Source: Leptogorgia sarmentosa (lineage: Eukaryota). From it: DNA of 64,000 nucleotides. Location: positions 15,438,001 through 15,502,000 of the forward strand of contig OZ210885.1 of assembly GCA_964658305.1 (NCBI GenBank). The letters run 5' to 3'. Position numbers and translations under genes: made by a program. Under the pieces are notes generated by a model, which searched no databases, was not told where the DNA came from, and saw nothing but the letters and a program-made list of their open reading frames with translations. This document shows, one piece after another, positions 7,881 through 35,604 of this stretch. Position 1 is the first letter of the stretch. Each line of letters begins with the position of its first letter.

Positions 7881-7967
7881 CGTCGGGCTGGCTTCGCCAG
7901 TATTGGATACAATAAATTGCTGTTATTTTAGTCTGTGGCTGTTATACGGGTTGTGGCCAGGTACAAT

Positions 7968-10900
7968 TTACTTTATTTGCACAAGAGCTAGCCTGTTACT
8001 TGGCCACTCATAAAACCCGCCCACAGAAAGAGGTTCATCCATGTCAAATGCTGCAGTACAAACAGGAAGCAATCCAGGCGTAATAATCTTTTTCGTTTCT
8101 ATTACAACATTCCCAACACTCACTTTTCGACCGTGTACTTCTGTTCTTTCTGTAAGGACTGCCAGAGCTTGCACGTCATCACTATCTCTTGACATTACAC
8201 CAAACATCATATCTGAAAATGTAGAAGTCCAAAAACTTGTAACATGCAGATATAATAATATCATGACCATCAAGATTTTCTGAGAGCCTTACAATGATTA
8301 CACAATTATAAACTCATTAATAATTTCAGAGGAAATTAGCCTAACATGTTACTTTATTTTGGTCACACGATAATACTGGATACGTGGGGAACTATAATGA
8401 TCCAGTCCTACGACTGCATCAAAATTTTTTTCAATCTGAACTGAAAAAATAGATTATTCATTCGTTTTTGATGTAATTCCAAATCCTCCAATTTGGCTGG
8501 AATAGATTTCAAGCCCTCACAGTTTGATTCAGTCCTCAGCTTTGCCCATACAAAATTGATATGTTGGCAAATAACATTGCCTATATTTTTGGCACACGAA
8601 ACACTTTGCACTCAAATGGTATTCCATAGTTGAAATAATTGGTGTAAACGTTGCAAGAATCGCTCTACCTTTAGGAACTTTTACGGCTTTGGCCTTGTGA
8701 AGGTCATGTAGAGACGCCAGGGTTGCACGCGGGTTACACATTTTGGAGCGGTCGGAAGCAGTGGAATTGCAAGCAGCAGGATTAGAAACGGACGGGGACA
8801 AATGGGATGAAGTGACAGCAGAAACAGAAAAGCTCGCAGTGATAGTACTATCAATTGGATGGTTGGAAGAATCATGCACAGAAATAGGAGCGTTTTCTAT
8901 ACCAGAAGACTGAGACGAGCTGGAAGTACTGGAACAAGGAAAGGGAATGTTAGGAGTAACAAGAGAGCTGGAAGTACTAGGGCAAGGAATAGATGCAAGA
9001 GAGACAACAGAATTGGGAGAATCGGAATTAATGGAAGATGGTAAACTGGAAGCAAGAGGATCGATAGCGTGAAATTTCGAGGAGAGAGTATCAGATGTGA
9101 AAGACCAGCTATTTCTGCACTGCCACAACTCACGACACTGGGCTGAACCATACAAGGCAGGTTTTCTTGGTGTCTTCCCAATTTCGTCCTCTAAATTGTT
9201 TGGAAGCCCCTTAAAAACAATGCCATACTCATTCAGTTCCGAATATGGCATTTTTGCGTTTTTCTTTTTCACCAGTTCACCTGTAAAACAACCATAAATG
9301 TGTTTCTCAAAAATGTGTTTTTTTTATGACAAAAAGCATCCGCGTTGCCTGTGTCGGAGGAGAACTACTGTATAAAACATGCGACCTAAAATCCAGATGC
9401 CTGAACTTTGAAGTTATACTTACATATTCTTACTGCTCGTAATTACTTACTTACATACTCTTACTTTTTGCTTTCGCACAGAGTACCTCTCACTGAAGGA
9501 AGTTTAAGCCTGGGGCTCAATAATTTTCCGTCAAGAGTAGAATGTGGTGAAGCTGTGGGAGGAAATTTCTCGGCCGAGGGTAGGTACATGGGTGGGGCCA
9601 AAACATTTTAACGCTGAACATTTTCCCATTTCGTCAGCAAATGCCCCAAAATAATGACTCCGCTCTAATCAATCACGTGATGTATAAATATTAAGATATT
9701 TTGGTATAGTGAGGGAAAACTCCCAGTGAGATTACTCACCGTATTTCATGTTAAATAATCCCTGAATACATTTTACGGAGATGTCTTCCTTTCCACAATG
9801 AGGATGTTAAAAATGCAGAAGTCATTCAAGTTTTCCAGTTTTGAAGGATGAATCAATGTTCAACGATTAATCGATGTTAACCTTTCTATACAATGTAGCT
9901 TTAGAATTATAAAGTGAAAGCAAATTACAAGACTTACATTGTAACAGGTTGGCAAAATGATGAACCAAATCAGTTTTGCCTGTTAATAACTTGTTACCAA
10001 CATCTGTTGTACCATGGTACACATTGCCACCATACCCACATATTAATAAGCAGTGGCCTCCCATAGACTCCAGTTTTTGCACCTTTGCAAAAATATAAAA
10101 ATACTCGTCGATCAATGATATGATAGTATATTGTATGTGAAGTACCGTTCATATTGCAATCAATTTATCACTTAGAGACAACACTTAGAGATCAAGCCAG
10201 TACAGTAGCCAGAGTGTAATAGTTTATACAGCAATTCATATAAATGAAGCAATTTCATTGGTTCTTGTTCGTGTGCGGTGCGCCATTAGAGTATACATCA
10301 CGGATGACTTCATCCAACAACAAAAGATATTTTTTTAGATCATATTTTTTTATATGATAGAGTATAGTAATGATATAGTATATAATAATTATGTAGTGCA
10401 GAGTGTAGTGTGATAATAGTGTAGTGTGATAATAGTGTATTGTAGTGTAATGTATAGTGTACTGCATTGCAGTGTTGTCTACTGTGCTGGGTATAGTGCA
10501 GTCAGGCCCATTGGGAGCAGGGGGTTGGTGGGTTGGGGGCTGCTCAGAGCAACATCACTAAACCTGTTGACAATTAAATTTATTTTCACAAATGCACATG
10601 TTCAAGAGCTAGCTAATTAGCTTTTGAGCAAATGCATTTGACACAAAATTTGTCAAAGAAAATTTGGTTATGTAAAAGGGGCTTAACTGTTAACAACTTG
10701 TAACAAGCTTGCTGGCATTATTAGAATACCCGGTACTGAAACAACCTTGCAACAAGGCTGATAATATCAACAAGGTAATGTTACAAATTGCTGACAGCCT
10801 GTCCCATATTTGTTGACAACTTGGGACAAGCAGTTTGCAACTTGTTGATTGCTTGTTGGCTAATTTTTACAAACTGTGAGATTTTTGTGTATGTAGTTGT

Positions 10901-13900
10901 AGAGTGGAGTGGAGTGGAGTGGAGTGGAGTGGAGTGGAGTAGAGTAGAGTAGAGTAGTATGGCGTTCCATCGCCGCCAAAATTCAAAGTTGCTACTCAAC
11001 AACCAACATTGCTACTCAACAACCAACATTGCTACACAACATTTAATTTGGACCTTCAACATTCAACTCTCCCATACTCAACATCGGATTGCACTCAAAT
11101 CAACATTTAACTTCGAAAAATCGCAATAATTTTATATTTGTCATTTTTTATAATCTCGTAATTCACATGACACAATAATAAAGTTCACGAACATCAACTT
11201 TCAATTTCACAACTCAACTGTCTTTCCCGGAATCTTTTTTACATCTTTTATTCAAACAATGTTACGACTTGCAATATCAAATGTTGCGATTTGTAATGTT
11301 GAATGTTGACATCTGCAGAACGTACCAAGGCCGCCAAAAAGTATCGGGTGTCGTAATGACGTCATCTCTCAGACACGTGCACGACAACGTCCTGATAAAG
11401 TATGTAAATATAGTAGGATTTGTAAAGGTTGTATTATAAAATATAGGTGGTGGTGGAGTGGGGTAAATGTCCACAGGGGCGAAACTACAGCATTAATTTG
11501 TGGGGGGGGAGGGTGAATGTTCATATATTTTCTAACCAAACTTTCTGCCACTGTAAATATGTTGAACAATATGTTAATTTGCCTTAGAGACAACGAACGT
11601 TAGAGGAGGTCATTGTTGCCAGTGATGAAGAAGAATGTGAAGTGAAAGATGAAGATGTTGAAAGCTTGCTGGGATTGAATAATGCATCTGGGTAACACAT
11701 ACACACATACAGTACATATAGTGGTGTACCTAGCAGTTTGTACATGTATGTATGTATACTGTATAGTTTGCATATTCTCTTATCTTAACTTCCATACCAA
11801 AAGCAGCTAATTCACATAGAATTAGGCTTTTGAGATATTTTCTTAAGATTATATGCTATACTATACATACTGTAAAACTGATAGTAGTGGAAGAGCAAAC
11901 AGTATATTTATTTATGTATGGTACTGTATCATTTTATAGTCAAAGGTTATTTTTGGAAGAACTATGTCCAAGTGCAAATACTGAGGACATTAACGCAGCA
12001 CTTTCTGCATCCGGTGGCGATGCTAATGTTGCAGCACAAAGTTTGCTTGGTATGGACTGGCTAGTAATAAATGAATTCTTTCCATTTTCTTTATCTCTAT
12101 TTATATGAAAAAATCAGGTGTGTCATAATCTTCCTAACATTGTCTAGGTGTGGAAGATGATGATGGTGAAGAAATAATCAGGATTGACCCTTTCCATACA
12201 ACATGTATTGGTGACGAGGATGTCACATGTATTGATGCAACCAAAGCAGTACTAAAGTTTAGAGAAGAAGTGATCAACCAAAATGCACCTCGTCAATTAT
12301 TCTCTGTGTCTCGTATGGAAGGCATTGAGGAACTCAAACGTGATATATTTGTATGTTACAAAGGCAGAAGAAACAACCTAATGGCACGCCCTAGAGTTTT
12401 ATTTGAGGGTGAAGAAGGGGCCGGAAGTGGTCCAGTTTGGGAATTTCTGTCATGCGCTATCAGGATTGTAGATGAGGGAATGAAAATTTCGTCCAAACCT
12501 ACAAACAGTCATCGTTTGCCTATCCATGATCAAGTGCTGCGAATAACCGGTTCTTTTAAGGCGATTGGCAGAATACTGGGTCATTCTGTATTGCACAACG
12601 GTCCTTCTCTACATGGAATTTCGCCAGCAATTGTGCACTACTTGAGTAACCCTTCCAAAGACAAAGATATTGTCGAAAGACCACCACCTTTGTCAATCAA
12701 TGACATTCCTGATACTGACCTTCGAGAGTGTATTTCACAGGTATGCAGGGCCTGGGGCAAAATTGTATTCAGAGGCCCCTGTGCTCATACCCCCTCCCCT
12801 CCCCTTCCTCCACAATTTTTTTGTGACCATGTAGTAATGTCCCTGTTGCCCCCCTCAACATATGTATGACTGCAAATACTGTATTTCCTCTCGCACATTG
12901 CCAACATTTAGCCTTCCTGCCCCCCCCCCCACTCCCTCTTCTTATACACACCCACTTGAAAAAGTTAGCCCTATTCCGGTTTTAAAGCAAGATTTTTCCT
13001 AGATACCAATCTAGGAAAGATATATATAGATATACCTTGATACCTGCTTGTATTAATATTTCACCAATTTAATAAGCGCTGTTTTCAATTTATTCAGCTT
13101 GATGATCTTGAAGGTGATGAAAAGATTCCAGAAATGTTGAAATGTCGTTTGGACCCGTACTTGTTTGAGGCTGGGTTGGATCCAGGAAATTCGGATCACA
13201 AATTTTTGATTCAAGGCCTCATGGTTTATAATATCATTAACAAAAGGCGGTTGGAGATTGAAGACATCTGCAAAGGTGTGATGGGCAGCATGATTGATAC
13301 TGATGTATTTCATCAATGTACGAATAACCATACCCTTACCCAGCAAACACCATCCACATGCCCAACACCCAGCAATTTTGAAGGAGAATTTGACACAAAA
13401 TGACAAAGCATTTGGTGTCAACTTGTTAGCTATTTATCGTATAGAAAAACACAATAAGCAAAGATCATCTCTCTTTGGTATTATTAATACTCTATCTATT
13501 TACAGGTATGGAAGAGATGAAGCTGGTGACATACCTCTCAAAATGGCCAGTTCTTGCGAACGTAGTATTTCCAAGGGATAATGAACGCATACTGGACAGG
13601 AATGAGTTTAAAGATAAGATTGATTTTGAGGAAAGGGATGAAAACGAACATGCCACACAGTTCTTATTTCAGTATATTGACATGATCGAACAGAGACAGC
13701 AAGGTAATTAGTATTATTTTTTGTTGCTATTAGTTTGTATGTTATTTCATGTACTAGACAGCACTTGTTACATTTATACTTAGTATATTCTGATAGAAAA
13801 CTAGCATTTAAAGCAATTAGGTTTTACTTCCTTAGTGATATTGTCATATAGAGGATAAATCTCTCTTGACTGCTGATGCATAAATTTGTCATAACACTTT

Positions 13901-16900
13901 TTGTTTGTTTTTTAGAGGGGGCTAACTTGACAGATCTATGTTGTTTTTGGACAGCTGTAAACGTACTACCAACTGGCAAGGACATGCTTGTTAAATTTGA
14001 CAGTGAAATAGAATTGCCTGTTGTGGAAACGTGCTTCATGAGCATGACCTTACCATCGAAATACAAGGTTTTCGAAGATTTTGCAAAACACATGGATATC
14101 GCCCTTAAATATGGGTCTAAGGGATTTACCTTTTCTTAAGATGCTATTTCATTTACATTGTATGTTGAGTTATGTTACATTTGATATTAAGTTATATCAC
14201 TTTGCTTAAGTAATAAACTCCACAGCATTAATATATAGTTCAACAACATCATGTATTAGCATTCCTTCAGGTGCAACAAATTGTGCCATACCTTCTACCC
14301 CTTGCAAATCCAAAGGACACACTGTTTCAGGCACTTCTACAGATTCTGACTCATGTGGTGGTACAGTCCTCCAAGATCTATGCCATAATTTGAAAAATCC
14401 CCCTAGCAAAGTTGAAAGAACATGGATTTTTTAGACGGTTATTTAGCATGTTGGATAACAAGGTTCCTGTCTTTAACTGAACATGAATGACATCTTGGAC
14501 TAAACTGGAAGTTTAAATGCTACTTGCCGTGCAATTTACAGTGTCCATTCTGTGTGCTGAATGACTATTATTTGACTCACATACACATGATTATACATTA
14601 TACAAGTTACAGATACATGCAATGTTGTATGACATTCTAATTAACATGTAACTTGTATTAACTTACCTGAAATGCCTCTCTTGATACATCCGAGCCACTG
14701 TGATACACATGGTGAAGCCACTTCACCCATAGTTGCATTGGTGTAGAATTTGTTTCTGTTCTCAGAGGATGATGTATCCAGGCATTCTTCCATGACTGTA
14801 AATGTCTATTCACTACTGGTAGGAAAACGGAATGAAGACACCACAAGTGAATATCGTTGTCAACGTCAAGCAGGCCACTCCTCTCCAATTCATGGAATGT
14901 GTTATAAAATAATACAAGGCATTCCTGAAATACATCTCTCCACAGTCTCTCTATACGTTGGTTATGTGTGCTTTTGCCTGCCAAAACAGATGTGAAAAAT
15001 TTAAATTCATTCATCAATTAATGTAACTTCTTTGGAACGTAATTTCCAGGCCATTATCACATGCATTGCAAGTTAGAAACCTGTAATCATGCTTCCTCTT
15101 CCTGATCCCCTTTGCGGATGTGAAATCATGTACCATGAAACATCAACATTTTCCCCTCCTTTGTCAGAGCGCACGCGGGATGGCAAACCAAATTCTTCAA
15201 CAGCCGCCACAAACAATTGAAGAACAGTGTCTGCCCTATTATTATTTGATGCATGTATATATACAGGTATCCTGGAATAACCATCAATTCCACCATGGAC
15301 AACAATCCTCCACCTAAATGAGAGAGGAGCACCTAATAATCAATCACACTATTTTATTTTGGTAATCGTCAATTGGAATATTTGGCTACTCTACTTAGCA
15401 TTAAGTAGTTAAAACAATACCGTATTAGCTTATGATTTCCATCTATGTGCCACAGGGCCAAGGGGGAATGTACATTGTACGTTCTTCTCTTAACAGCTTG
15501 CTTCCATCGTTGGGCAGCCCCAGAAGGATCTGTTCTTAGAAGTGATTGCCTAATTCTTTCTCGCTGTGTTCTGTGGCCTTTACTGTGAAGATATCCTTTG
15601 AGCATTCGGATGCCAATACTGGGATTCTCTCTTTGCGCAGACATCACTAGCATGTCCAGTTCGTCGTCCGTTATGTTACTGTATGTATCTAATTTCAATA
15701 AAAATTTTAAAAATTTCCACAACCAATTTATATGCAATTTTTTGGTACCTACATAATTTAGGGTGGACAAGAATTGACGAACCACTGACATTTATCGCAC
15801 AATAGAGGTATCAAACTCACCACAAATACTGATACCAAACGCTGCAAGTTTTCTTTGCACAGTTCGCTTCCCTACCCCCAAAACGCCGCTCATTTCCCCA
15901 GCTGTAAATCCTTGATCTACCAAAAATGCCAACTGCTCCCTTGAAATATCAATTGTTGGTCTTCCGCGACCTATAGAGGGAGTCGACGAAGCCTGATAGC
16001 CATAATACTGTGCATCACTGCCATGATTGCTATCCAGTACAAATCTTTCCAACTGCTGGTGTACTGAGGACATTGTATTTACAATTTCGTCAGGTACATC
16101 CAACGTAACGAGCATTCTGTTTAGGTAGTCAAGCCTTAATTTTACCAAATCAACATCGCTTGCATTGCTTAAATGCTCTATTGTGCCCGCTATTTCTTTT
16201 ATAGCATTTGTCACCGTGCTTATCGTTAGTTCCGCCATGTTGTCAACAACGCCACTATTTTGCACGTGTCTGAGAGATGACATCATTACGACACCCGATA
16301 CTTTTTAGCGGGCTTGGTACGTTCTGCAGATGTCAACATTCAACATTACAAATCGCAACATTTGATATTGCAAGTCGTAACATTGTTTGAATAAAAGATG
16401 TAAAAAAGATTCCGGGAAAGACAGTTGAGTTGTGAAATTGAAAGTTGATGTTCGTGAACTTTATTATTGTGTCATGTGAATTACGAGATTATAAAAAATG
16501 ACAAATATAAAATTATTGCGATTTTTTAGAGTAGAGTAGAGTAGTTTATAGTGTAGTGAAGTATTGCAGAGTATAGCATTGTATTATATAGAGTATAGCA
16601 TATGTACCGTCAGGTAATGTATTCATTGCATAGTATTGTATACTATTGTATACTACTTAATTAGTGCCGTATAGTACTCTAAGCCTGTCCCTTGATCTAC
16701 TCAAGTATCCTAGCAAAAAACTGAAATTTTGAAAGCTTAGGATAATTTGGATTAAAAAAACCCAGAAACTTGAACTTTACCTCTTTCATCATATTATTAA
16801 TAATTTTTTTGGCCTTGAAGTCCTTTGATGGTAAGGAAACATCATTTTCTGATGCTAATGCCTTTGTCTTATATTTTTCTTTCTCTCCAGCAGGAAGACT

Positions 16901-19900
16901 TCTCCACTGTTCACCCAGCTCTTTAAAGGAATCACAGCGGGATCCACTGGTGTCTGAAAATTAAATATACAAAGAATGTTTAAACAAAATCAGAATACAT
17001 CCTGTCCTATTATCATACCAATAACACTATTTGTCATGCACATGATAAATAAGTTATTCTAATTAACTAATGTCTGTACCTTTACTACCCTACTTTATTA
17101 TAGTTGCTGGCAACACTATTTCATAACTATCAAGGGTTAATGGGCTAACCTGATGCAATGTATACACAGTACTGTGAGACTCTTAATTACCTTTAAGCAG
17201 ATTTTCACTGGCAAAGACATTAAATCCAGATCTTTTTCTGATTAGCTTGCTTTTTGCTCTTTTAATAGATGTCCTTCCACTCACTTTGGCTTTATAATTA
17301 TTGATCCAGTGCTGGATGTAAAAATTACAATGTAAATCAATAAAGGTGTCTATGCTGGACATAGTATATCTCTTCTCAATTAATATTTAGTAAATAAAAA
17401 TTAAACTTCATATTGGTTAGTTAGTGGAAAAGATGATATATGACTATATATAACAGGGCTTAGTTATTTTAAACTGTTTAAATTTCATTTGTATATATGC
17501 ATCATCTCTCTACCAATTACCATGGATAGAGGACATGTGCAGGATGTACATATTCATTTCTAACAACCCTATCTCAGTTAATCCAAATTTCATATTAGAA
17601 ATCTAACAGTGGTATAGCACTCACTACAGGTATGCTATTGGGTTACTGAACGGTCCTACTAAACACCGTCCGCGCGAAAATCTGCTTTCTATTACTCTTT
17701 CTATTTAGTTTTTTATCATTAATCATTACAGTTCTACGCAATAATTTATAGTATGCTTATTAAAAAGGGACAAAACATCAAGATTTGTAATATATATAAA
17801 CATTTATATTATTATATACACATATCAAGATTGACATAATACATCAAGATTCGGTATATAAATTTATATACCAAGATATAAATATATATACCAAGATTAA
17901 AATATATATGTCAACATTTAAATATGTATGTCAAGATTCACATGTATGTATAAAGATATATATATAGCCTACATCAAGTCAACATCATGTCAAGATTCGT
18001 ACATGCTTATACTGATGAGTCAGACCGTTGGCCCTATAAATTTTGAATTTTTGATCAAAAAACAAATGATTGCAAGTTGTAAAGAGCACAGAAAAATGTG
18101 ATTCATTTATTGATTACATGGCGACAAAATTATATACATATTTTAGGCTTCTTAGCAGCTGGTGTAACTGTTTTTGTTAGTTAGATTATAATGATATCCG
18201 CAATAACATATACAAACAATCGCTTGCAAATGTTATCAATAGCAATGTTAACAATAGCTGCCATAGAAATCACTTCATTCACTTGTTAACAATAAACTAT
18301 AGGATTAATAAAAAATCTATGGAATGTGTTGCGAATCCTTGCAGTTCAATTCGTGGTAGTAGGCGATTAATTTTTCCAATACGTAAAAGGTTATGGCAAC
18401 TTTGGCAAGTGGTTTCTTTCATATCTTTCGCACATTTGTAGCCATTCATTACATGTTTATGTTAGTTAGATTATAATAATATCCGCAATAACATATACAA
18501 ACAATCGCTTGCAAATGTTATCAATAGCAATGTTAACAATAGCTGCCATAGAAATCACTTCATTCACTAATAAACTATAGGATTAACAGAAGAAAAACTG
18601 CTGTTTCCGCCTAATAACAATGAATAAAAGACCAAAACTACTAATGAGCATTCCAGAGATTTTTTAAGCAACCATGCAGTGTGACGTATGACTCACACAT
18701 GGTGCATTCATGGGTATTTACGCATAAATAGCGGCATGCTATGTCATAACCCGTCAGCTTTCATTGAAGCAAGTACTCCGCGTTCGCGATCGTTGGAATT
18801 TTCTACATTTTGTTAGCTTTGTTAATCAACGTTTTCTGAAAATGGGCAGAAAAAATTGCAAGCAAATTGAATATCCCTGTGGTACGTGTGATAAAGATTG
18901 TGAAGTAGGATCACCACCAGCTGTGTTTTGTGGTGACTGCAATCTGTGGTACCATGCGGTCTGCCAGCAGCTCACAGCCGAGATGATGAAAGCTCTGGAA
19001 AATGATGTTGTCCAAGATTATGTTTGCAAGAATTGCGCACAACAAGATGGCGAATGGGAAATGTGTTCTAGGATGCTAGTCCAATAACGTTTGGAAGTGA
19101 AGAACTGTTTCCAACAGTATCAGAGCCTGAAGCAGAATTTGCGGTGTCTGCAAGCAAGAGCCTCTGTTCATACAGTGCAGAGAATGAAGTATGTTGGACA
19201 GATATATTCGTATTGTTACATATTAGAAATATTGGTTATTGATATTTGATTATTTATAGTCCTCCGGCAAAAAACGAAAACGTATTGGGTCAATCTCTGA
19301 TGATGTCATTTTACCTTCGGACCTCGAAGAGAAAACGTTTCACAAGAGCTCAACAGAGGAACAAGACCTTGACAACGATTATTCAGATGAAGTTCGACCC
19401 GTATGTTTTTGAAAAAAAAATATATATATATAGTATAAATAAATATATTTAAATATATATATATCTTTAAGCATATTTTAATTCTTACTAATATTTATAA
19501 ATTTTAGAAGTCATTTGGCGTTGCTGAAACTAAATGTGTGCCACCTGGTGCCCATGAAGGAAATGGTTCTTTTCTTGCTGCTGACGAGGTCGTTAAAATT
19601 TTATTAGCCGAGGACCCCGATTGTTTGTGTACAGAACTACCAAAAGGTAGGAAAGAAAATGTATATTTTGTTGTGGATAACGATGAAAACATTAAGAGAC
19701 GGAATAGTGGGGGAAAGAGTAAGTTCCCAGACGACTGTGGAGCATGGTCAGATTCCTCGTCAACTAAAAAACATCATTATGTCTTTGAAAACGGGTCCCT
19801 TGTTTACATTGAATTGAAAAAGAAGTTATTTTGCAAGTATTCAAAAGGAGAAAAACGCCCATTAGATCCTCAGCCAAAAATGGATGACATTCTTATTCTT

Positions 19901-22900
19901 AAAAGATACTATACATCTCTAAAAAGAGCACCCGAGTATAAGAAGCGTGTTACGTGGGTGGAAAAATTTCCAACAAACAAATATCTAAATGTATTGCTGT
20001 TGTCGAGTATATTGGAATTTTTCCACAGAACGTTGTCCCTCATGGAAATGCCAAACACTGTAACGCAGACTATGTAAGAAGTAGTGAAGCAGTCAAAACC
20101 AAGTTGACAGAAAAATTTAAGAACAACAATGGTAGTCTTCTAGCACCTGGAAAAATTTATGAAGAAATGGTTTTAGAAGATCCAGAAAACGCACCACGAG
20201 ATCTTAAACAGGTACAGAATGTGAAATATTTAAAGAATAAGAAAAATAGACACCAAACAAACACTGAACACAGAAGAAAAAACATTGCTGATGATGTTCT
20301 AAGTTTATTGAACATGTTTCATGAACACCCTTTTGTCCAAGAGATCATTCAAACAAAAGGGAAACCTCCCTCGGTTATTTTGTACCTTATGATATCTTGT
20401 GCGGATGAGTACGAGTTTCAGTTGGCAGCTTTTGAATTGGAAGAAAAGTACAGCAAATTCATCCCAAAGTTTCTTCCATACTTTGTTCGATTAACAAAAT
20501 CCCTTCTCGAGTTCGTCTTCTTGCCAAGCAAAAACAATAATTGCGTTCCCATAGACTGGAAGAACAATTCATGCGAAAGCATGAACCACATTCTGAAACT
20601 TTTATGCAACTGGAAAGTCCAAAAAATGACAGATTTAGTCGAGAAAATTTTCAGGATCGTGAAACTGCAGTACGCTGACATGAAACGTGCCCTTTATGGC
20701 ATGGGCAATTTTCAGATTGCTCCATGGATGGCAGCGTGCAAGGTCAGCCAAACCAACTGGGCAACTAAGTCGGAAGAAGAGAAAGACAAACTTTTCCAGA
20801 AATTTTTAAAAGGCGTCCCGAAGAAAGAAAAGAAAATTAAGTCGACGGATGGAGGAAGATTGGAAATCCCCACAACACAGAAAGTTGCAAGAAAACCGGG
20901 ACAACGTAAACGAATAAAATCTGTACGAACTCGGTAAAATTGGTTAAAGTTATCAATCGTGTATGCTGTTATTGATCTAGTTTGTTATTATTTTTTTTCC
21001 TTTTGTAAATAGTGAAATTGGTATATAGTAATAGTTTCTTCTTGTAAATAAATAGTGTAATATAGTCAGTAGTCTTGTTAATATAGTGTGACATAGTGTA
21101 GTGGAAAAGAAGTTTTAAATACAATACAAAATACAGAACTTATCCGGTTTAATTAACCTTTTTTGCAAGTCGCGCCTTTTTTGCAAGTCGTGCCTTTTTT
21201 AACGAGTCGCGCCAATTTAGTCGCGCCTCGCGCCTTTGAGTCGCTACTCGCATGCCAGGGTGCATTTTACACAAAAGCTACGCCGAAGTTACGCCCGTGT
21301 CTTGACAAAGTCACGCCAAGAGCAAATAGAAACTCTATAAGATCACAAAATCATCGAGCAACGTTGCGCCAACAACACGATTTATTATGCAATCTCGATT
21401 GTGATTGACTAAGGACCTATAGGCAATATCTCCATGTCTTGCCAGTTGCCACCTACAATGACATGGATAATTAATTATGTTATAACTGTCGTTTGCTGCA
21501 TGCGCGTAGACAAAATAGCTGATAAATGTATTTTCAATGCATAATAATTAAACAATTATTGAATTCGGTGTTCGCATTCGCTTCGGCAGATAATGCAAAC
21601 TTCGGCTTGATAATTCTCAATATCATGCTCAACCTAATCGAATAATTGTTAAATGTATGATGTAGGCAGTAGCCTGGTTTTAGTTGTTGAATAGCAACCG
21701 TCAGATGAGCAGCAAAAAGTTTTCAAGTTAAGTTTCAACAAAACCGTCAATTGTAATATGAAAATCTAATCAGGATATTGTATAGTTGTCTAATAGTTCT
21801 AATCAGTTTTTATGAAATTGCTGTTCAATCAGTGTTGCCTTTGGAGAGAAAAGGACAACGACCTAAATCAGAATCGATCCGATCCACAACTTTAGAAACA
21901 CAGTACTTTTCAGAAAAGAATGCTCGTTGCCTATGTGGTCTCAGTTCATCATCACCATGAAGATATAGTTGGACGCTCTCGTGTATGATGGGCTCGCACT
22001 TCTTAAGTGAGGGTAAACACCAATTGAGTTTGGTTCGCCGGGCAAGTGTTTCATTTGACTGCCCACCGGATTGTTGCTGTGCTCTCATAGCGCTATAATA
22101 ACTTTCTGCTATTGCCTCAGGCCCTCCTTTCGACAACACGATGTCGATAATGGCACACGATGGTGGTTTGGCAATGCTGTATATTTCTTCATTGGCGTAG
22201 AAGGACTTGAAAACATTCTGCTCATGCAATCGAACATCGAACTCCTTTCCATTGGCAAACTTCATCTTGAAAAGGACATCAAGGCCATCGGAGTTGATCG
22301 ACTCAAACAATACAAGCTTGGAATCTTGTGGATGCAATGGAATGCTGTCTGCTCCTTGCAACATAAACCATTCGGGACAAAGTAACGTCCAAATCCCAGC
22401 CATTATTGCCTCTTTGATGCGACTCATGTATCGATGTGCGAGTCGTGGATCAAAGTCCATACCAGACTGTTTTATGTGTAACATCTTGGAGGCAGTGGCT
22501 AGTACAGCTTTACATTCTTCAACTCCATAACTTTCATACATTCCATCCGATGCAATTAATTTAACCGACCCTTCTGAAAAAACCCCACAATGCAATGTTA
22601 CCAATGTAGCTGCATCAAATACTTCGAGAATTGACAGTGAACTATCTGATGTCACAGACAGGACTCTTCTGTTCAAGGACTTCTCTAATTCCAATGCTAA
22701 GCTCTGGTGATCTTTACAGATTTCCTCTATTTCCCGTTCTTTCCAAACAAACCGCTTATCCAAAGCATCCTTTCCCTGATCTTTGGTAATGAGCCAGCCT
22801 TCGAGCAGCGTTACCTGTTGGTACTTGTATCCTGGCTTTATATTTTCCCGGCCAGCTTTTTCTAAGCGAGGGTATGCTGCGGCATCACCACGAGAAGCTT

Positions 22901-25900
22901 TTTCTAACTTTGCTTTCACTATTGGCCACCATAATTTTAGCTTCCAGATTAGGGTATCAAGAGATTGTACCCGTAGCATTAAGTCAACCACTGGTTGCAT
23001 AATATCGAGGAAGGCCAGTAAATCTGCTACAAAATCATACCCAGCAATCATATACTGAAGCTCCTCTTCCTCATCCCGGACTGGATTGAGCAGATCAAAT
23101 GCTTTCCAGAAGGAAGCGTAGCTGTTTTCAATCTTTAGCCATTGGTCGTAGGAGGAGCTTGCAAATCGTTGGCAAGCAAAAGGAACAGGTCTTCGTGCAG
23201 ATTTGTCCACAAGCTGTAAAAATGCAAAACCTTTGCCGTTAGCCAGGATCGAATTGAATATGTTGCATCTTTTTACAAATCTTCTGAACACATCACCAGC
23301 TTGTGTTTCTGAATCTTTCACATTGACAACTGCGAGATTTAGGATATGGGCGGGATCCCAAGTAACAGGCAGTGCTAGACTTTCCAGGCCATCTTCTGCA
23401 ATCTCTAAAATAGCCATCAGCTGTTTGCGAAATCCACCGGCTTGATATGGCCCATCAGCTGCAACACCACAGAGCCTGGAAAGAACTTCTTTTGAGAAGT
23501 TGTTCTCAATTGCTTCAAGAAGGAGTTTGGCCAATACATCGTACGAGGCTTGCTCGAAATCCTTGTAGACAGCTGGAGCATCAACAGGAATTGGGCACGG
23601 AGTACCAGATTCATTTCGTCCAACTACAAGAACAGCTTGATTGGTAATTCGAGCAGGAGTAGCCTTATCTATTGTTGCCCATATGTGAGGGGGCAATTGA
23701 GTTGAAGGAAGAGGTTGGTTCAGCCAGTCGTTGATTTTTCCGTTTACTGTCTTTTCTAAACAGTGCAGAATTTCACTGAATTTATTACGGCCGTGACCGA
23801 TATTGCCAACATCTACCCCACAACACGCCAGAAAAGATATCATCGTTTCGAAATTTCTGGCTGCTGCCCCAAGCTTGAGATCGGTAATTGCTGCCCGAAA
23901 TATATTACCCGTAGCCGAAGCTTTTCTCTTCATCATCTCTTTCTCTCGCTGATATGTCTCCATTGCAGTTTTATGAACCTTCGAACTTTCACCGCTTAAA
24001 CATAGGTGGTCCATGCAAGATTTCTTTTGCCTATACCAGGTTTGATTTCCTCCTTCAATTAGTTGGCGAGTAGTCCTTTTATCCAGGAAAAGTCCATTGC
24101 CAAGAGTACCGTTACTTGATGAACAAATCAGCCGCTGGGCTTCAAACGCGCTGAGACGACGAAGATTTGGTTTGGCAGTGATGTGGAGTCTGAAACAAGG
24201 TAAACAACGGAGTACACTAGTTTCCGAAACTTCATCATAAAAGAATTCAACGAACTCTGATAAATCGGTTAACTCGTAAATATTCTTTGCTTCCCGCATT
24301 ACCGAGATATTTGCACGAACGTTATCATCTTCAAACACCAACTGTTGGAGTGTGGTATGCTGACTTCCAAATTGGTCAACTTTAAGGGACAGCTTTTCAA
24401 TAGCGCAAACTACGTCCTTTAACGAGGTATCACTTGGGGTCGGAACTGTTGCTTCAGTTGTTTTTTTAAATGCAAGCAATGTGGCCTGACTCTTGCCTTT
24501 TGATGTTGTTGGTTGACTTGGTTCGGAACTATGTCCACATTCTTCTTTCTGGGTGAAAAGATCGAGATCTTCTTTTGTGTTACTCCTACGCATGATTTCA
24601 ATGGAAACAGCAGAAGGCTGCTCTTCGACGGAATTAAAACCACATTTGGTGTTTTTTTCTTGTGAGGTATTCGTGATTCTTGAAGCTTTGGAGTCTTGTT
24701 TTCGAAGAGACTGGATCTCTGGTGCATTTGATGGTACAATAGTACACTTGGACGATTCCGCTTCCTTGTGCCATCTTTCTTTGTGTCTTTTGATACTTGA
24801 TGTATCGTTTCTGCACAATGATGCAAATTTCTCATCTCTTTTTCCAAGAAGTGACAGTTTTAAACATTCCATGCAAGTGTACTTTTCTCGTAATTTTTCC
24901 GCTTTTGTCGGACCAAGGTTGCGTTTCTTCTCTGGAACAGGAACACCCTTTCTCCATTCCCACGCTGAATAACGTTTAGAGGCTGTTGCGTTCTTTTCCC
25001 TTTTCTCATGGTCTTGCGTTTTGAATGAAGCGGACGTTCGAGGAATCGTCTTACTAGTTCTGTTTTCTATTAAAAAGGTAAGCGGGCTTTCCATATATAC
25101 TGGTGAACAAAGACAGTTAGAAATTACAATCAACTCATTAACCATAATAACCACTGCATTATTTACCATCATTGTTGGTGTTGCAAGTAGTGCAAATCAC
25201 TTTTTGCCCGAATCCTTCCTCCCCTTCTGGAATACCACAATGCAAGTGGACAAACTTTTTACACTCCTTACATGAATGAGCGTCGCCAACACTTTGGAAA
25301 CAAACATGACACACCTTATCCATGGACTATGGTCTAATTGTTAATTAAAACCAAAATAACATAAAAGATTGTTTTGAAATTTGCACTCCGGTTAAATAAT
25401 TCAACGCAAATCATTAATGAACAAAAACTGCTTTAAAAACGATACTGCTGAAACAGTTTATAGAAACATTTTTCATACCTGAATAGTGAATATCTGATTT
25501 ATTCAATGATATAAGAATATTATTGATATAAGAGCATTAAACACTTTTTACCAGTTCATTTGATGCTGGAATAACAGAATTACATCTTATTTCGATTATT
25601 TCAATATAATAGTTCAATACGTTTCAATCGATTATTTGTTCAATCAATATTGACGTCGTGTCAACGTATGTGTTGCGTAACCGCGTGTAATCGAGGCCGC
25701 GATCAAAGCCGATCATTCAGCAGATTACTAGTTTTATTCGGTATACTTTATGTTAATGTGGCAGGCTCGTAGTCTGACTTTAATTTACAGCCAATGGAAT
25801 ATGGCCCCCAAACTGAAACTCCTAAAGGTAGACTAATTTAAAATAACTAAAATTTCGTAGCTTTAACTTTTTATTTATACATTGTATCAAACTTTATAAA

Positions 25901-26869
25901 ATCACGATATGCCATAGTACGCCAACGCCATTACGCCAGTAATTCATAAAATTTTTACTACGCCAACACGCCTAAAACTATGCGATCGTACGCCACTACG
26001 CCGAGCATTTATAAAGTCCGCGCCGAAGATCTTCGGCGTACGGGTCTTCAAATGCACCCTGGCTCGCATGCCGTGCCAATTAGATTATCTCTGATATTAC
26101 AGAATTTTTAGCGGACGTTGGCGGACGTTCGCGGACAGTGTTTAGTAGGACCCCACCTGAAAGTATAACAAGAAAAATAGACAAATCCAGTCTTGAACAT
26201 ATGTATGTACTGATGAGTAAAATAATCCTTGCCTCAAATATGTCTGGTTTTGGGATATAAAAAACATATAAGAATATAACAAATAATTCCTAATTAGATA
26301 TATGAGGGTACAATGCTGCAACTTCGAGTGTCAAGTGCACCTCATTGTCTGTTTACTCTGTCTTTACTCTTTATGTCTGACAATCCTGAATTAATATTAT
26401 ATGCACAATCATAGAAACAATAACAATAGAAGCTCGCGTCTGTTTAGTAGTTTAATTTAATTTAAAGTAATACATGAAACAAATTCAGAGATAACTGTAA
26501 AATACGTTTATTATCTGTACATATATATATCAGTCTTGTCAACAACAAGTCTTTTTATATCCTACTCAATTTACATAATACTAATTTACATAAACTATCA
26601 TGCTAAATGTGACATCTCCCGTTCTTTTTTTTTTCATGCATAGTTCAACTGCAGTTGACACAATGGACAGTGACAGCACTACCAACCTTGACCTGTTGTT
26701 CTGTAAGCATCGTACGGCTTGCACATTCTCGTATCACAGGTAAATTTTCTTTTTTTGTTGAACCCATATTCCTGTTGTCAAAGAAGAACTTCAGAATTGC
26801 CAACTTCTCTTCGTCAATTACTAAACGGCCTTCAATCGTATTGTTGTTTATACTAGGAGTAATTTCCAT
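7968..26869 (-). CDS. Multi-exon homeodomain-like + HMG-box + Tnp1/En-Spm-like protein (probable transposon accessory gene, partly decayed)
   Basis: Phase-compatible exons: 26869-26687 (..LTEQQVK), 17311-17191 ([25 protein letters not shown]), 16953-16781 ([25 protein letters not shown]), 10082-9938, ~9805-9740 (acceptor reads AC, not AG), 9280-~8400 (Ser-rich, frameshifted) and ~8213-7968 ([18 protein letters not shown]). Confidence 0.75.
10330..10957. repeat. Degenerate (TAGTG)n / (TGGAG)n(TAGAG)n pentanucleotide microsatellites
   Basis: Directly visible at ~10360-10500 and 10900-10957; similar repeats resume at 16527-16680 on the other side of the IS3EU element. Confidence 0.8.
11588..14139 (+). 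CDS. CUE-like + HECT-domain E3 ubiquitin ligase (G2E3-like), spliced; first exon not found
   Basis: Exons 11588-11691, 11940-12049 ([39 protein letters not shown]-like), 12148-12740 ([42 protein letters not shown]), 13098-13275, 13506-13703 and 13916-14139 ([29 protein letters not shown]). Catalytic Cys is present. Confidence 0.85.
14206..16238 (-). pseudogene. IS3EU-type DDE/integrase-core transposase, spliced and decayed
   Basis: [17 protein letters not shown] exon; [42 protein letters not shown]. The middle exon (~15080-15320) is frameshifted or deleted. Confidence 0.85.
18170..18590. repeat. ~130-bp direct repeat
   Basis: TGTTAGTTAGATTATAAT.ATATCCGCAATAAC...CACTTCATTCACT at ~18175 and ~18460. 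Confidence 0.8.
18842..19087 (+). CDS. PHD-finger ORF/exon
   Basis: [30 protein letters not shown] matches the C4HC3 PHD pattern. Confidence 0.75.
   Translation: MGRKNCKQIEYPCGTCDKDCEVGSPPAVFCGDCNLWYHAVCQQLTAEMMKALENDVVQDYVCKNCAQQDGEWEMCSRMLVQ
19508..20937 (+). pseudogene. MULE-like transposase with a frameshift and a deleted DDE core
   Basis: [28 protein letters not shown] and KPPSVILY jump directly to the C-terminal region containing [14 protein letters not shown] (catalytic E motif) and RALYGMGNF. Frameshift near 19980. Confidence 0.65.
21549..21652. repeat. Short palindromic-ended interspersed repeat
   Basis: Terminal inverted repeat AACAATTATT ... AATAATTGTT inside the hAT 3' region. 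Confidence 0.5.
21825..25172 (-). CDS. Uninterrupted ~1100-aa hAT-like transposase
   Basis: N-terminal C2H2-like motif ([12 protein letters not shown]), WATIDKAT (D1), GVAADGPY (D2), WDPAHILNL (CxxH-equivalent), [13 protein letters not shown] (E). The true start may be the M at ~25094. Confidence 0.8.
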   Translation of the reverse strand: MMVNNAVVIMVNELIVISNCLCSPVYMESPLTFLIENRTSKTIPRTSASFKTQDHEKREKNATASKRYSAWEWRKGVPVPEKKRNLGPTKAEKLREKYTCMECLKLSLLGKRDEKFASLCRNDTSSIKRHKERWHKEAESSKCTIVPSNAPEIQSLRKQDSKASRITNTSQEKNTKCGFNSVEEQPSAVSIEIMRRSNTKEDLDLFTQKEECGHSSEPSQPTTSKGKSQATLLAFKKTTEATVPTPSDTSLKDVVCAIEKLSLKVDQFGSQHTTLQQLVFEDDNVRANISVMREAKNIYELTDLSEFVEFFYDEVSETSVLRCLPCFRLHITAKPNLRRLSAFEAQRLICSSSNGTLGNGLFLDKRTTRQLIEGGNQTWYRQKKSCMDHLCLSGESSKVHKTAMETYQREKEMMKRKASATGNIFRAAITDLKLGAAARNFETMISFLACCGVDVGNIGHGRNKFSEILHCLEKTVNGKINDWLNQPLPSTQLPPHIWATIDKATPARITNQAVLVVGRNESGTPCPIPVDAPAVYKDFEQASYDVLAKLLLEAIENNFSKEVLSRLCGVAADGPYQAGGFRKQLMAILEIAEDGLESLALPVTWDPAHILNLAVVNVKDSETQAGDVFRRFVKRCNIFNSILANGKGFAFLQLVDKSARRPVPFACQRFASSSYDQWLKIENSYASFWKAFDLLNPVRDEEEELQYMIAGYDFVADLLAFLDIMQPVVDLMLRVQSLDTLIWKLKLWWPIVKAKLEKASRGDAAAYPRLEKAGRENIKPGYKYQQVTLLEGWLITKDQGKDALDKRFVWKEREIEEICKDHQSLALELEKSLNRRVLSVTSDSSLSILEVFDAATLVTLHCGVFSEGSVKLIASDGMYESYGVEECKAVLATASKMLHIKQSGMDFDPRLAHRYMSRIKEAIMAGIWTLLCPEWFMLQGADSIPLHPQDSKLVLFESINSDGLDVLFKMKFANGKEFDVRLHEQNVFKSFYANEEIYSIAKPPSCAIIDIVLSKGGPEAIAESYYSAMRAQQQSGGQSNETLARRTKLNWCLPSLKKCEPIIHESVQLYLHGDDELRPHRQRAFFSEKYCVSKVVDRIDSDLGRCPFLSKGNTD

Positions 26870-27559
26870 ATTAATGATTTTTATGATTTGTATAAATATT
26901 GATGACTGTTGGAAAGAGTGATCTACAAACAGCTTTGAATAGGTTCAGTAAGTCAAGTTATTTAATATACAGAAATTTAGAGAAAGACAAGTGCAAGGAA
27001 TCGATATGAAAATGAGTTTTAATATAGTGAACGAAGCGTATATCTAGCTTATCTCTCGAATTCACGCGCTATATGTACAAATTTCGCGCGCACATACAAC
27101 GCGCATTTAGAAGCATGAGACTGGTACATATAATAAGATTATTAGGCTTTGTTAGGTGTATTACACCTACATTAGTCGCTACTATGCGCCAATTACATTT
27201 CAATTGGATATGTTAATATGCGTATAATTACGGGTGTATCAGGTGTTATGATTGACAGATGACATAGGTGAGATGCAAAAATGTCTGCACATGCGCGCTA
27301 ACGTCACGCGTACGTACGAGGTTGCACGCGTACCACAATAAGATGCAGCATATTTCAGCTTTAAATAGAATACATTCAATCAAAGTGATGTTAAGTCCTT
27401 ATGCTGTTTGTTCACTTTGTTGTGCTTCCAAACGTTTGCGTTCAACTTCGTTTTGCATACAGTTCATCGCGTGGCAACAACGTTTAGCAATGTTTTGGAA
27501 GGTCCTCATTACTCCCTTTGAGGACCACAAACATAAAAGATATTAAAAAACTTTCGAAC

Positions 27560-29858: not shown

Positions 29859-32492
29859 CAGACATGCCAAGTCTCACGGTTTTACCGTGAGACTCACGAT
29901 TTTGACGTAAATCTCACAGTCGCACGATTTTCATACTAAATCTCACGATAAATAGAAATTTTAAGGGTTTAAATAAAATTGAAGATTTTAAACCTTTTAT
30001 AGCAGTAGAGCAAAGTCGCTATGTTGATTTTAGTAAAGTGATAACTTGCAGCCCTAAAATTCGGGTCTGTGGTCAGGCTGCAACAGGCCATAGTATTATC
30101 AATATGGCGTCAAAACGATGTGCAGACAACATAAACTCATCAAGTGACGAAGAAACAGAATCTGATGATGATCAGACCAGCTACGATGTTCCTAAAGCAA
30201 ATCCTTCGAAGGGCGCAGAAAAAGCACCGAAAGGAAAAGGTGCTGCTGTCTATAAAGTGGTTTATAAAGCCGAATGGGGTAAGGAGTTTCCAATTCAAGC
30301 AGTTCCCTGCAACAACCATAAATTCCGCTGCATTCCATGTGGTAAAGATATATCATGTCATCACCAAGGTCTGGGGGATGTAAAGGTTCACTGTGGTAGA
30401 GAAATACATAAGAAAAATGTAGTATTGTGGAAGCGACAGAAGACAATTACATTAAGTAAACCAAACAAAGATACCACTCTTTCAAAAAACGTTATCAAGG
30501 CCGAAGTAATCATTACAAACTTTCTTGTTCAACATAATTTACCCATAGCGACTGCTGATCATCTTGGACCTCTTTTCAAAGAGATCTTTCCTGACAGCGC
30601 TATTGCCTCATCATACTCCTGTGGTAGAACTAAAACTAGTGCTATTCTGAATGAAGCTCTTGCTCCTGAGTGCCACAGGTACGTTGTGGAACAATGTAAA
30701 ACACATCCTTATAGTGTTGGTACGGATGGTTCTAATGATACAGGGATAGCAAAGATGAACCCTGTAAGCATTAGAATTTTTGATATTAACAAATCCAAGA
30801 CTGTCACCAACCGTTTTTTTGACATGTGCTTGACAGAAGGAGAGGATGGAGCAAAAGCTTTTAAAATATTTGAAGCTATAGAAGAGAAATTCACCAGGGA
30901 TTCTATGCTATGGTCAAATTGTGTTAGTCTAAGCATTGACAATACAAACACAATGATTGGAGTCAATGATTCCGTAGCTTCACGTTTCCTTGAAAGAATC
31001 CTGAAATTTTTATTGCTGGATGTCCATGCCATCTAGCACATATTGCTGCCAGTCATGCCAATGATGGCTTCAGTGACATTTTGGGACTCAATGTTGAAGA
31101 TGTCTGTGTAGATTGTTTTTATTGGTTCGACAAAAGCTCAAAGAGGAAAGGCAAGCTTCTTGAATACTTTGAGTTTTGTAATCAAGATTATCAGGCTGTC
31201 TTAAAGCATCTGTCTGTCCGATGGTTGTCATTACAACGCTGCATGGAAAGAATTCTAAAAAAGTTTCCTAGTTTGAAGTCATACTTTTTAAGCGAAGATG
31301 CCACTGACCAGCGATTCCAAAGGTTGTTTCAGTGGTTTGGTAATCCATTGTTGGAACCTGCCTTGCTCTTTCAAACTGCAGTAATTTCATTGTTTACAGA
31401 TTTCAATCTCCTTCTGCAGAGAGATGAACCGACTATTCATGTGGTAAAGCCAGCAATGGAAAGCCTTGCAAGAAAACTTGCCAATCGAATTGTTCTTCCA
31501 AGCATGATGAAAGATGTTAACTCGGCTTTGGAACTAGACCTTGATGATGAAAGTATCTTTAAGCAAAAAGAAACAATATTCGTAGGAGGCACCACAAAGT
31601 TTACGCTCAACAGATTACGCAACAATGGCATCATCAGTGAAGCAAGCTACAAGAAAGTACACTTAGCAGCTCATCATTATTTCAAAAGTTCTTTGAAATA
31701 TATACTGAATAAATTTCCAATTAACAGTGATGTCTTTTGCAATGCTGTCTGGGTGAATGTACCATCACGACATGAAGCCACCTGGGAAAGTGTAGAATTC
31801 TTTCTGGAGAAATTTTCATCACTCACTTCGATCCAGAATATCAATTTTGACAGTCTATACGAAGAGTTCGTAGATTATCAGACCATTTCAAATGATTCTA
31901 TTGGTGAAAGTGTATGGCAAGAAGCAAAAGTTATTGATGGCAAAGATGAAGATAGAAATGAGAAGGTACATTATCGAATTGACATTCTGTGGTGGCACCT
32001 AGCCCAGAAGCGGTTCAAACACCTACCAAAGGTTGCAGAGATCGTTCTCGTCATTCCCCATAGCAATGCTGAACAGGAGAGACTTTTTAGTATTGTGCGG
32101 AAGAATAAAACATCAAGCCGATCCAACCTTCAACTCCATGGCACCTTATCCAGTATTTTGGCAGTGAAATCCCAGTACCCAGAATCATCTACACCATGCC
32201 ATAAATGGAAGCCTGGCGATCAGTTGCTTAAGGATTCAAAGAAAGCAACCATGAATTATAATAAGAAGCATCAGCAGGACACTGACAATGATTCCGAGTA
32301 AATGATTTACTTGTCTTTGTGAGAACAAACTTTGTGAACATTGTTGAAATTATGTTTTAACTGAAGTTATAATACTATGCAAACTCAACTGTGTATTTTA
32401 CTTGTCTCACTATTTTTACCTTTTTCTCACTATATTTTGGGAAAGAAAAAATGAGTCTCACTATATTTACTTGCTAGAGGTTGGCATGTCTG
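29859..32492. mobile_element. hAT transposon with a probable 6-bp TSD (hAT6-like)
   Basis: TIR CAGACATGCCAA / TTGGCATGTCTG; flanks ATATTA / ACATTA (5/6 match); no 8-bp duplication. Confidence 0.8.
30104..32301 (+). pseudogene. hAT transposase with one frameshift (~30995)
   Basis: Zn finger CIPCGKDISCHHQGLGDVKVH, SCGRTK, TDGSND, SIDNT, (C)PCHLAH after the shift, SVRWLSL, IPHSNAEQERLFS. Confidence 0.9.
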
Positions 32493-32548
32493 ACATTACC
32501 TTCCTTTTAATCATCTCATTTGGTGATCATGTTTATTTATATAGTAGA

Positions 32549-33047
32549 TGAAAATGACACCAGCAGCAACGGTGATGACAATGGTGCTGACTCTGATAAA
32601 GGTGATGATGTTGATGCTCATTATGTTGAAGAAGAAGAGAAGCAAGACGAAAAAGAGATTGCATTAGATAAAGAGAAGAAAGGAATATTTAAGAGCAAGA
32701 AAATAGGAAAGACCAAACTGGAAAAGTCGATTGAGTTGCTAAGTGAAAGTTTTACAAATGCATCAAAAAGAGAGGCTGACATGATGACGCAACTTGAAGA
32801 AAAACGGCACAAACAGATGTTGGACCATGAGCTAAGGATGAAAGAACTTGATAATGAGAGACGGCGGGAAGAGAGAAACCATGAGATGCTGTTGCTTCAA
32901 ATGATGTGCAACAATAGAAATTATAGTAATTCTCAAGGAGAAGTAAGTTTCAGTAACAGTGCTATGTACACAACTCCTCCAGTTATGCAGTACATGCCAT
33001 CAGAGGGTAACAATAATGATATTGGCAATACCTATTTTAAATTGTGA
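32549..33047 (+). CDS. Terminal exon of a Harbinger second ORF (acidic + coiled coil, typical of the Myb/SANT partner C-terminus)
   Basis: Follows the acceptor ATAGTAG; encodes KTKLEKSIELL..LEEKRHKQ..ERRREERNHEMLLLQMM; converges on the Harbinger transposase. A Myb/SANT exon itself was not found. Confidence 0.55.
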
Positions 33048-33189
33048 CAATTCTGCTACATTCCATTGTTTTGGTTTGTATGATAAGTGACACAACGAAG
33101 TTTTTTATATTGTTCTTCTTAAAAGAGTAAGCTTATTAAGTTTTATATTGTTAACATAAAACAACGTTTTAAGATGATGGTTTGTGTGT

Positions 33190-35470: not shown

Positions 35471-35604
35471 CTGTATTCTCTCTATTTAGCCCCCCCCCCC
35501 TCTCAAATAAGCCCCCCCCCTCTCAATTAAGCCCCCCTCTAAAGGTCCTGAAATGAATAAGCCACCCCCCCCCCCCCCCAGGGGGCTAAATAGAAAGAAT
35601 AAGG
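35471..35604. mobile_element. Tc1/mariner-pogo-type MITE
   Basis: TA|CTGTATTCTCTCTATTTAGCCCCC ... GGGGGCTAAATAGAAAGAATAAGG|TA; a related end occurs at ~41344. Confidence 0.65.

Follow-up and report, generated by a model that had tools for sequence, protein, structure and literature searches.

A seven-exon Leptogorgia gene with an HMG box, a candidate homeodomain-like module and two introns enlarged by transposon insertions

Introduction

The homeodomain and the HMG box are among the main DNA-binding domains of animals, and they normally occur in separate proteins. The recognition helix of a homeodomain carries a conserved Trp and a conserved Asn, usually at positions 48 and 51. SH3-like barrels, the fold class of the Tudor, PWWP and KOW domains, are small domains of another kind, many of which bind a partner protein or a histone mark, and the TNP1 (En-Spm) proteins of plant CACTA transposons end in a short domain of mainly beta structure that has a W-P close to its terminus. 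The I-repeats of TFII-I have been called unique to the GTF2I family (PMC3493543).

Here we analyze a stretch of 64,000 nucleotides from Leptogorgia sarmentosa (NCBI GenBank assembly GCA_964658305.1, contig OZ210885.1, positions 15,438,001 to 15,502,000 of the forward strand), which we refer to as the window, and within it a minus-strand gene at positions 7968–26869. A reading of the letters alone (the original prediction) had proposed that a homeodomain-like helix, an HMG box, a Ser-rich linker and a C-terminal segment resembling the Tnp1/En-Spm domain are encoded here by scattered exons, and that the product is probably a transposon accessory protein. We find a low-copy gene of seven exons, whose product is probably a DNA-binding regulator that acts in the nucleus and is confined to corals and related animals, rather than part of a transposon. 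What is new is the combination of known DNA-binding domains, together with two regions for which no family has been described; our literature searches surfaced no paper on this family, nor on any protein joining a homeodomain to an HMG box. The closest described HMG-box proteins, HMGB and TFAM, share with the window protein a box that is recognized by both Pfam and a profile search of the PDB, but in the window protein the box is single, is split by an intron, follows a homeodomain-like module and precedes domains that HMGB and TFAM lack.

Gene structure and splicing

When joined, the seven minus-strand exons give an intact open reading frame (ORF) of 514 codons that begins with an ATG at 26869 and contains one stop, at 7968–7970. 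Exon 1 (26687–26869; ATG at 26869–26867; residues 1–61) encodes helices 1 and 2 of the putative, divergent homeodomain together with the beginning of its helix 3, and is followed by an intron of 9,375 nt (17312–26686) with GT..AG ends. Exon 2 (17191–17311; residues 62–101) supplies the end of helix 3 with its W-I-N-N motif, then a basic linker, and begins the HMG box; after an intron of 237 nt (16954–17190), exon 3 (16781–16953; residues 102–159) completes the box and adds a helix-rich tail. The third intron (10083–16780) is 6,698 nt long. Downstream of it, exon 4 (9938–10082; residues 160–207) encodes the first part of a conserved central region, the 66-nt exon 5 (9740–9805; residues 208–229) the start of a candidate GTF2I-like repeat, and exon 6 (8669–9280; residues 230–433) the remainder of that repeat (to about residue 290) and then a Ser/Thr/Pro-rich linker. 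The last intron, of 456 nt (8213–8668), precedes exon 7 (7968–8212; residues 434–514), which encodes a C-terminal domain predicted to be an SH3-like beta barrel, and the stop. Residues 1–160 are basic, with 32 Lys and Arg vs 20 Asp and Glu.

The three junctions named in the original prediction (26687/17311, 17191/16953 and 16781/10082) have GT after 26687, 17191 and 16781 and AG before 17311, 16953 and 10082, keep the reading frame when the exons are joined, and are bridged by public contigs. The proposed in-phase splicing therefore stands, as the intact ORF shows, and every peptide string that had been quoted for the gene was found. The earlier exon list was incomplete: three further introns lie downstream of these junctions, and the 66-nt exon (9805–9740) and the last intron (8668–8213) had been overlooked.

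Evidence that the gene is spliced comes from six public sequencing runs (X1–X6, from two studies) that have contigs matching window positions 7900–10100; we placed their contigs on positions 7900–26950. Those of X1 cover 30 of the 30 bins of this interval and behave like DNA. The contigs of X4, X5 and X6, in contrast, skip exactly the proposed introns, with plus-strand ends of CT..AC, that is, GT..AG on the minus strand. Joints 8212/8669, 9276(+4)/9736 and 16953/17191 are found in contigs of all three of these runs, 9805/9938 and 10080(+2)/16779 in contigs of X4 and X5, and 17311/26687, which skips the 9375 nt of intron 1, in one contig of X4 only. Spliced contigs thereby cover all six junctions in X4, whereas X5 shows five of them and X6 three, and a single X5 contig of 1,153 nt spans exon 2 through exon 7. 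Spliced forms are absent from the DNA-like contigs of X1, and from X2 for the three junctions that X2 could show, which makes a processed DNA copy unlikely. We infer that X4–X6 are transcript assemblies, because they contain the joints of this gene as well as GT..AG joints within transposon genes, and because their cover of introns is thin and patchy. The transcript continues beyond position 7900, past the stop in exon 7.

Toward the 5′ end, some contigs leave the window sequence. One X4 contig diverges at 26772, beside a possible acceptor, and continues for 29 further letters; contigs of X5 and X6 depart at 17290, within exon 2 and just past an AG; and an X1 contig departs at 26715, within exon 1. 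Neither the X4 letters beyond 26772 nor the X5 and X6 letters beyond 17290 were found in the window when up to 3 mismatches were allowed. The loose ends of X1 and of X5 and X6 start with similar sequence, which is not in the window. These departures could represent alternative first exons or insertion alleles. We take the likely start codon to be the ATG at 26869, because the stretch upstream of 26772 encodes a peptide that aligns with the N-termini of coral homologues, which also begin with 'ME'.

Homologues in other corals

A full HMMER scan with the 80-residue last exon against 1,835,955,588 representative proteins gave 12 matches at E ≤ 1e-3, of which 6 were at E ≤ 1e-10. One of the matches, P0006 (1535 residues with 14 CBM_14 chitin-binding stretches), aligned via nine short stretches and was removed as spurious. 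A profile of the remaining short matches then picked out three longer proteins among 7,995 candidates, including gene models from Montipora foliosa and Dendronephthya gigantea. Word-based protein searches with pieces of exon 6 found nothing, and NCBIfam yielded chance matches only.

The Montipora cluster, defined at 90% identity, has 12 members, and the full-length models are 511 and 537 residues long in M. foliosa and 537 in M. capricornis (P0017, XP_068691965.1; P0018, XP_068739886.1; P0019, XP_068691964.1). All are chromosomal models of genes with several exons, from two coral species. In the databases the relatives are named 'uncharacterized protein' or bear names that apparently reflect the low-complexity linker.

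The spliced window protein aligns with P0019 end to end (query 16–511, subject 8–534) at 38% identity, with an E value of 1e-111 (blastp, three-sequence set). The original prediction had named a loss of exon collinearity in other copies as the finding that would speak against its gene; in this comparison the order of the homologous exons is kept. Exon by exon, identity to Montipora proteins is 40–57%, with the linker as the exception: exons 1 and 2 are 45% and 53% identical to P0016 (a shorter M. foliosa protein described below), exons 4 and 5 are 40% and 45% identical to P0017, and exon 6 is 57% identical to P0017 over residues 230–290 but 28% over the linker. The Montipora models fall in the same length class as the window protein (511–537 vs 514 residues) and present all blocks in the same order, from the W-I-N-N helix and the HMG box through the central region and the linker to the C-terminal barrel. 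They differ in that the window protein has about 8 extra residues at its N-terminus and a helix 1–2 loop that is longer by two. Since the seven exons are collinear with these proteins, the architecture has been kept by distant relatives; with an identity to Montipora of only 38%, the window protein is either a distant orthologue or a paralogue.

Two loci on separate contigs of M. foliosa have products that belong to one 90%-identity cluster. The second is annotated as two genes, P0016 (154 residues) and P0014 (365 residues), which have adjacent accession numbers and lie on one contig; P0016 comprises only the homeodomain and the HMG box, and P0014 the remainder. As the split falls at the place of the transposon-filled intron 3 of the window gene, the two may be parts of a single gene that likewise has a long intron at this point.

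The Dendronephthya gigantea (soft coral) isoforms P0015 and P0034 have the C-terminal barrel in common with the window protein. By an unscored reading by eye, the beginning of the central region may be common to them as well. They have no homeodomain-like module, no HMG box and no I-repeat-like part, and one of these isoforms begins with a zinc-ribbon-like motif instead.

An HMG box behind a homeodomain-like module

Exon 3 alone matches the Pfam family HMG_box_2 (PF09011) over profile positions 34–63 (E 1.6e-4, 22.7 bits vs a cutoff of 22.4), and the homologues match the same family with E values from 4e-5 to 4e-4 (21.3–24.6 bits, P0016 giving 24.6). The other HMG box model, PF00505, stays below its cutoff of 25.4, at 22.4 and 20–22.9 bits. 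When we searched the PDB with a profile in which P0016 was one row and window exons 1–3 each formed another, 25 HMG-box entries were found at E ≤ 1, the best being HMGB3 (E 2.1e-6, profile positions 77–132) and TFAM (E 1.5e-5, profile positions 73–121). The HMG box that the original prediction had recognized by its peptide is thus confirmed both by the family cutoff and by its match to solved structures.

The N-terminal module is more borderline. The Pfam Homeodomain family (PF00046) matches 4 of the 5 homologues scanned over profile positions 1–51 of 57 (E 5.5e-5 to 2e-4); with 23.3 bits, P0016 lies above the cutoff of 22.9, whereas P0017–P0019, with 21.6–21.7 bits, lie below it. That 55 residues are accommodated on 51 profile positions points to a longer loop between helices. 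Among the PDB entries that match positions 1–66 of the profile described above, 14 of 15 are homeodomains, with 2da4 (E 4.1e-3) the best and engrailed at E 5.3e-3 in this sequence-profile search; a PDB sequence search with exon 1 alone gave nothing meaningful. Weaker matches to CENP-B_N (E 0.014–0.03) also fall on the N-terminal module of the homologues. The W-I-N-N of the recognition helix, which straddles the junction of exons 1 and 2, is identical in Montipora.

Like proteins of the PF00046 family, then, these proteins give a nearly full-length profile match (in the homologues) and keep the W and the N of the helix. They differ from them in their threshold scores and enlarged helix 1–2 loop, no homeobox class can be assigned, and the window protein and Montipora do not agree in the basic residues that follow W-I-N-N. 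We therefore describe the module, at borderline scores, as divergent and homeodomain-like, with a helix 1–2 loop that is apparently enlarged. The earlier claim of a homeodomain-like third helix holds as far as the motif and the Pfam matches of the homologues go, and is weakened by the marginal scores and by the failure of exons 1 and 2 to match when taken alone. The unusual architecture with more than one DNA-binding domain does hold, as the collinear full-length coral homologues carry both Homeodomain and HMG_box_2 matches.

The central region and the linker

Scanning of whole proteins gave no Pfam match in the central region (residues 160–290). When a 78-residue part of P0019, the counterpart of window residues ~216–290, was scanned by itself, it matched a single family, GTF2I (PF02946), over profile positions 5–71 of 75 (E 7e-4, 20.3 bits vs a cutoff of 27). 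The corresponding exon 6 part of the window protein, scanned alone, did not match GTF2I. In the Atlas, GTF2I was present in two of the three best clusters for the N-terminal part of exon 6, at a level (0.80–0.81) that is often reached by shuffled proteins. Profile searches of the PDB with the central region did not find an I-repeat structure, a PDB sequence search with the N-terminal part of exon 6 gave nothing meaningful, and a single-sequence fold of that part had a predicted local distance difference test score (pLDDT) of 48.3. We consider the putative GTF2I-like repeat a borderline lead rather than a case of family membership. Its likeness to the I-repeats of the TFII-I family lies in the below-cutoff match of the P0019 part to nearly the whole GTF2I profile, as its sole family; the difference is that there would be one repeat here instead of several, in a chain that also contains a homeodomain-like module and an HMG box. 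Literature searches surfaced no paper on I-repeats in invertebrates.

The linker (residues 291–433) is 45% Ser, Thr and Pro over its 143 residues, in agreement with the Ser-rich linker that had been proposed.

The C-terminal domain

The C-terminal domain constitutes a small family of its own: its 12 HMMER matches among 1,835,955,588 proteins include the spurious one, and in 10 of the 10 family members scanned it matched no Pfam family at E ≤ 10. Searches with exon 7 yielded no usable match in the Atlas and, by sequence, nothing meaningful in the PDB.

From an alignment of 10 sequences, AlphaFold2 predicts a domain of five strands with a pLDDT of 89.3. Foldseek found nothing similar to this model at E ≤ 1e-3; its weak matches were to KapB and the PWWP domain of DNMT3B (the best, with TM scores of 0.50–0.51) and also to SH3, Tudor and KOW domains. 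With VIA-align, the best match was to RBB1NT (Z 5.1, root-mean-square deviation 2.1, 59 residues aligned), followed by the C-terminal domain of RSV integrase (4.9), the C-terminal domain of KorB (4.8), KOW (4.8) and PWWP (4.6). All of these belong to the SH3-like barrel fold class and all have Z scores under 8. The model therefore suggests a fold class, an SH3-like small barrel, and no specific relative within it. The resemblance to the Tnp1/En-Spm domain that had been read into this segment was not upheld: neither Transposase_23 nor any other Pfam family matched it, in the 10 members or in the longer homologues.

A possible mode of action

In the mechanism that we consider likely, the basic N-terminal part would bind DNA through the recognition helix of the homeodomain-like module and bend it through the HMG box, while the I-repeat-like module may supply a third DNA contact. 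The Ser/Thr/Pro-rich stretch would serve as a flexible linker to the SH3-like barrel, which may dock the protein onto a partner or onto a chromatin or histone mark. The large introns would be tolerated because the insertions they contain are spliced out.

A bolder interpretation, possible but in our view rather doubtful, is that the gene represents a class of transcription factors confined to anthozoans, in which three DNA-binding modules, a divergent homeodomain, an HMG box and a single I-repeat of the TFII-I type, are followed by an undescribed Tudor/PWWP-like barrel that reads chromatin. If true, the I-repeat, so far regarded as exclusive to the vertebrate GTF2I family, would occur in cnidarians as well, and in a new setting. 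The gene also gives a hint, weak yet testable, that the I-repeat of TFII-I predates the vertebrates. Apart from this interpretation, the locus reveals two conserved regions that no Pfam family covers, namely the central one and the C-terminal barrel, and it shows how multi-kilobase transposon insertions in introns conceal genes with short exons from ORF-based annotation.

Transposon insertions in introns 1 and 3

Introns 1 and 3 contain two independent transposon insertions. Both had been noted in the original prediction; the size of the larger holds (8.5 kb; 8,510 bp), whereas the smaller is 5,411 bp rather than 5.6 kb. No target-site duplications were evident at either.

The insertion in intron 3 (11116–16526) is bounded by terminal inverted repeats of 266 nt that are 99% complementary; its plus strand has a HECT-domain ORF, its minus strand ORFs for an rva_4 integrase core. 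The insertion in intron 1 (17643–26152) is skipped by one DNA-like X1 contig, which joins 17642 to 26153 with 'AA' between them and has 30 letters on its shorter side; this suggests that an allele without the 8,510-bp insertion exists, and thus an insertion polymorphism. The ends of this element match over a short length, the sequence from about 17652 at the left recurring as its reverse complement at the right. On the minus strand it contains an ORF of 1123 residues (21825–25196) that matches no Pfam family at E ≤ 0.01 and an exon that matches Znf_SCAND3 in Pfam (25159–25326); on the plus strand are a PHD-finger ORF, also recognized by Pfam (18728–19087), and an ORF of 331 residues (19942–20937). 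Spliced contigs with joints 18920/20692 and 25333/25479 suggest that this element is transcribed.

Host gene or mobile-element gene

The window contains no paralogue of the gene, and the DNA-like runs, at 80% likeness, contain the window form and one diverged set of contigs only (X1 and X2, over 7900–10100). The latter differ from the window by about 7–8% in intron and exon alike (for example, by 36 other letters plus 28 gaps in 432 nt, by 13 in 188 and by 28 in 326), and a single such set indicates a second allele or a paralogue, not a repeat family. No inverted repeats of at least 60 nt flank 7968–26869, those found bounding only the intron insertions, and there is no transposase in the gene's transcription unit, the transposase-like ORFs of the window belonging to other units. 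Together with the multi-exon structure of the relatives, these observations speak for a host gene.

An origin from a transposon, either as the accessory protein of an unrecognized element or as a domesticated transposon gene, would fit a window packed with mobile elements (hAT, a Harbinger-type DDE_Tnp_4, two elements with HECT and rva_4, and DUF3987). It would also fit the weak CENP-B_N matches of the N-terminal module, a helix-turn-helix type that also occurs in pogo-type transposases, as well as the two M. foliosa loci with their closely similar products and the diverged copy or allele in X1 and X2. On the other hand, no member of the family has a match to a Pfam transposase or to Transposase_23, terminal inverted repeats were not found around the gene, the gene is low copy, and just 12 clusters were found among 1.84 billion representatives. 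Moreover, its seven exons are collinear with Montipora proteins at 38% identity, and the insertions sit within its introns, bounded separately from the gene. Unlike the plant CACTA TNP1/En-Spm (Transposase_23) proteins, it is accompanied by neither a CACTA-type transposase nor terminal repeats. We consider a transposon origin improbable, and the assignment as a probable accessory protein does not survive these comparisons.

Our preferred interpretation, a low-copy host gene that probably encodes a DNA-binding regulator, nevertheless has several observations against it. The neighborhood of the gene is dense with transposons. None of the six runs is recorded as RNA, and the first 97 nt of the ORF (26869–26773, the first 32 codons) lie outside the cover of the spliced contigs. 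Exons 1 and 2 alone match no Pfam family at E ≤ 10, and the homeodomain and GTF2I scores are at or below the Pfam cutoffs. The acceptor of exon 5 reads AC rather than AG in the window, although contigs of X4 and X5 splice there anyway. Finally, among the differences listed, 6 of the 8 coding differences between the X4 and X5 contigs and the window are non-synonymous, so that constraint may be weak; for the diverged DNA contigs the figure is 4 of the 8 listed. These counts cover 16 listed sites, with 99 further differences outside the count.

Some of these points would also be explained if the window copy were a decaying or weakly constrained allele that is transcribed and not fully functional. 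The contigs of X1 and X2 break exactly at 9806–9807, the letters of the AC acceptor of the 66-nt exon, which suggests that the window allele may differ there from the X1/X2 allele; contigs leave the window sequence inside exons, at 26715 (X1) and 17290 (X5 and X6), where insertion alleles or other first exons are also possible; about 14 kb of recent insertions lie in two introns; and 6 of the 8 listed coding differences from X4 and X5 are non-synonymous. Yet the ORF is intact over its 514 codons, every conserved block of the family is kept, the X4 and X5 transcripts include the 66-nt exon (the skipping of which would preserve the frame in any case), and the count of differences comes from 16 listed sites. 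Decay of this copy thus seems to us unlikely. A host gene that is fast-evolving would fit both the difference counts, a small sample, and the 38% identity to Montipora.

Mobile elements elsewhere in the window

At higher window coordinates than the gene, the region 29906–34494 is occupied by mobile elements, with an ORF containing a hAT dimerization domain at 30994–32301 and a Harbinger-type DDE_Tnp_4 at 33514–34494. DUF3987 primase-helicase-like ORFs of a further mobile element lie at 46841–47998.

A second HECT element occupies 35152–44189, with inverted repeats of 94 nt that are 96% matched, and it contains a HECT ORF, an rva_4 integrase core, and DEAD and Helicase_C ORFs. A HECT domain together with an integrase, as found both here and in the intron 3 insertion (11116–16526), is an odd cargo for a transposon family. 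Close by, at 45069–45242, is an array of 12- and 18-nt units with telomere-like hexamers of the CCCTAA type, which adjoins an array with an 8-nt period at 44715–45030.

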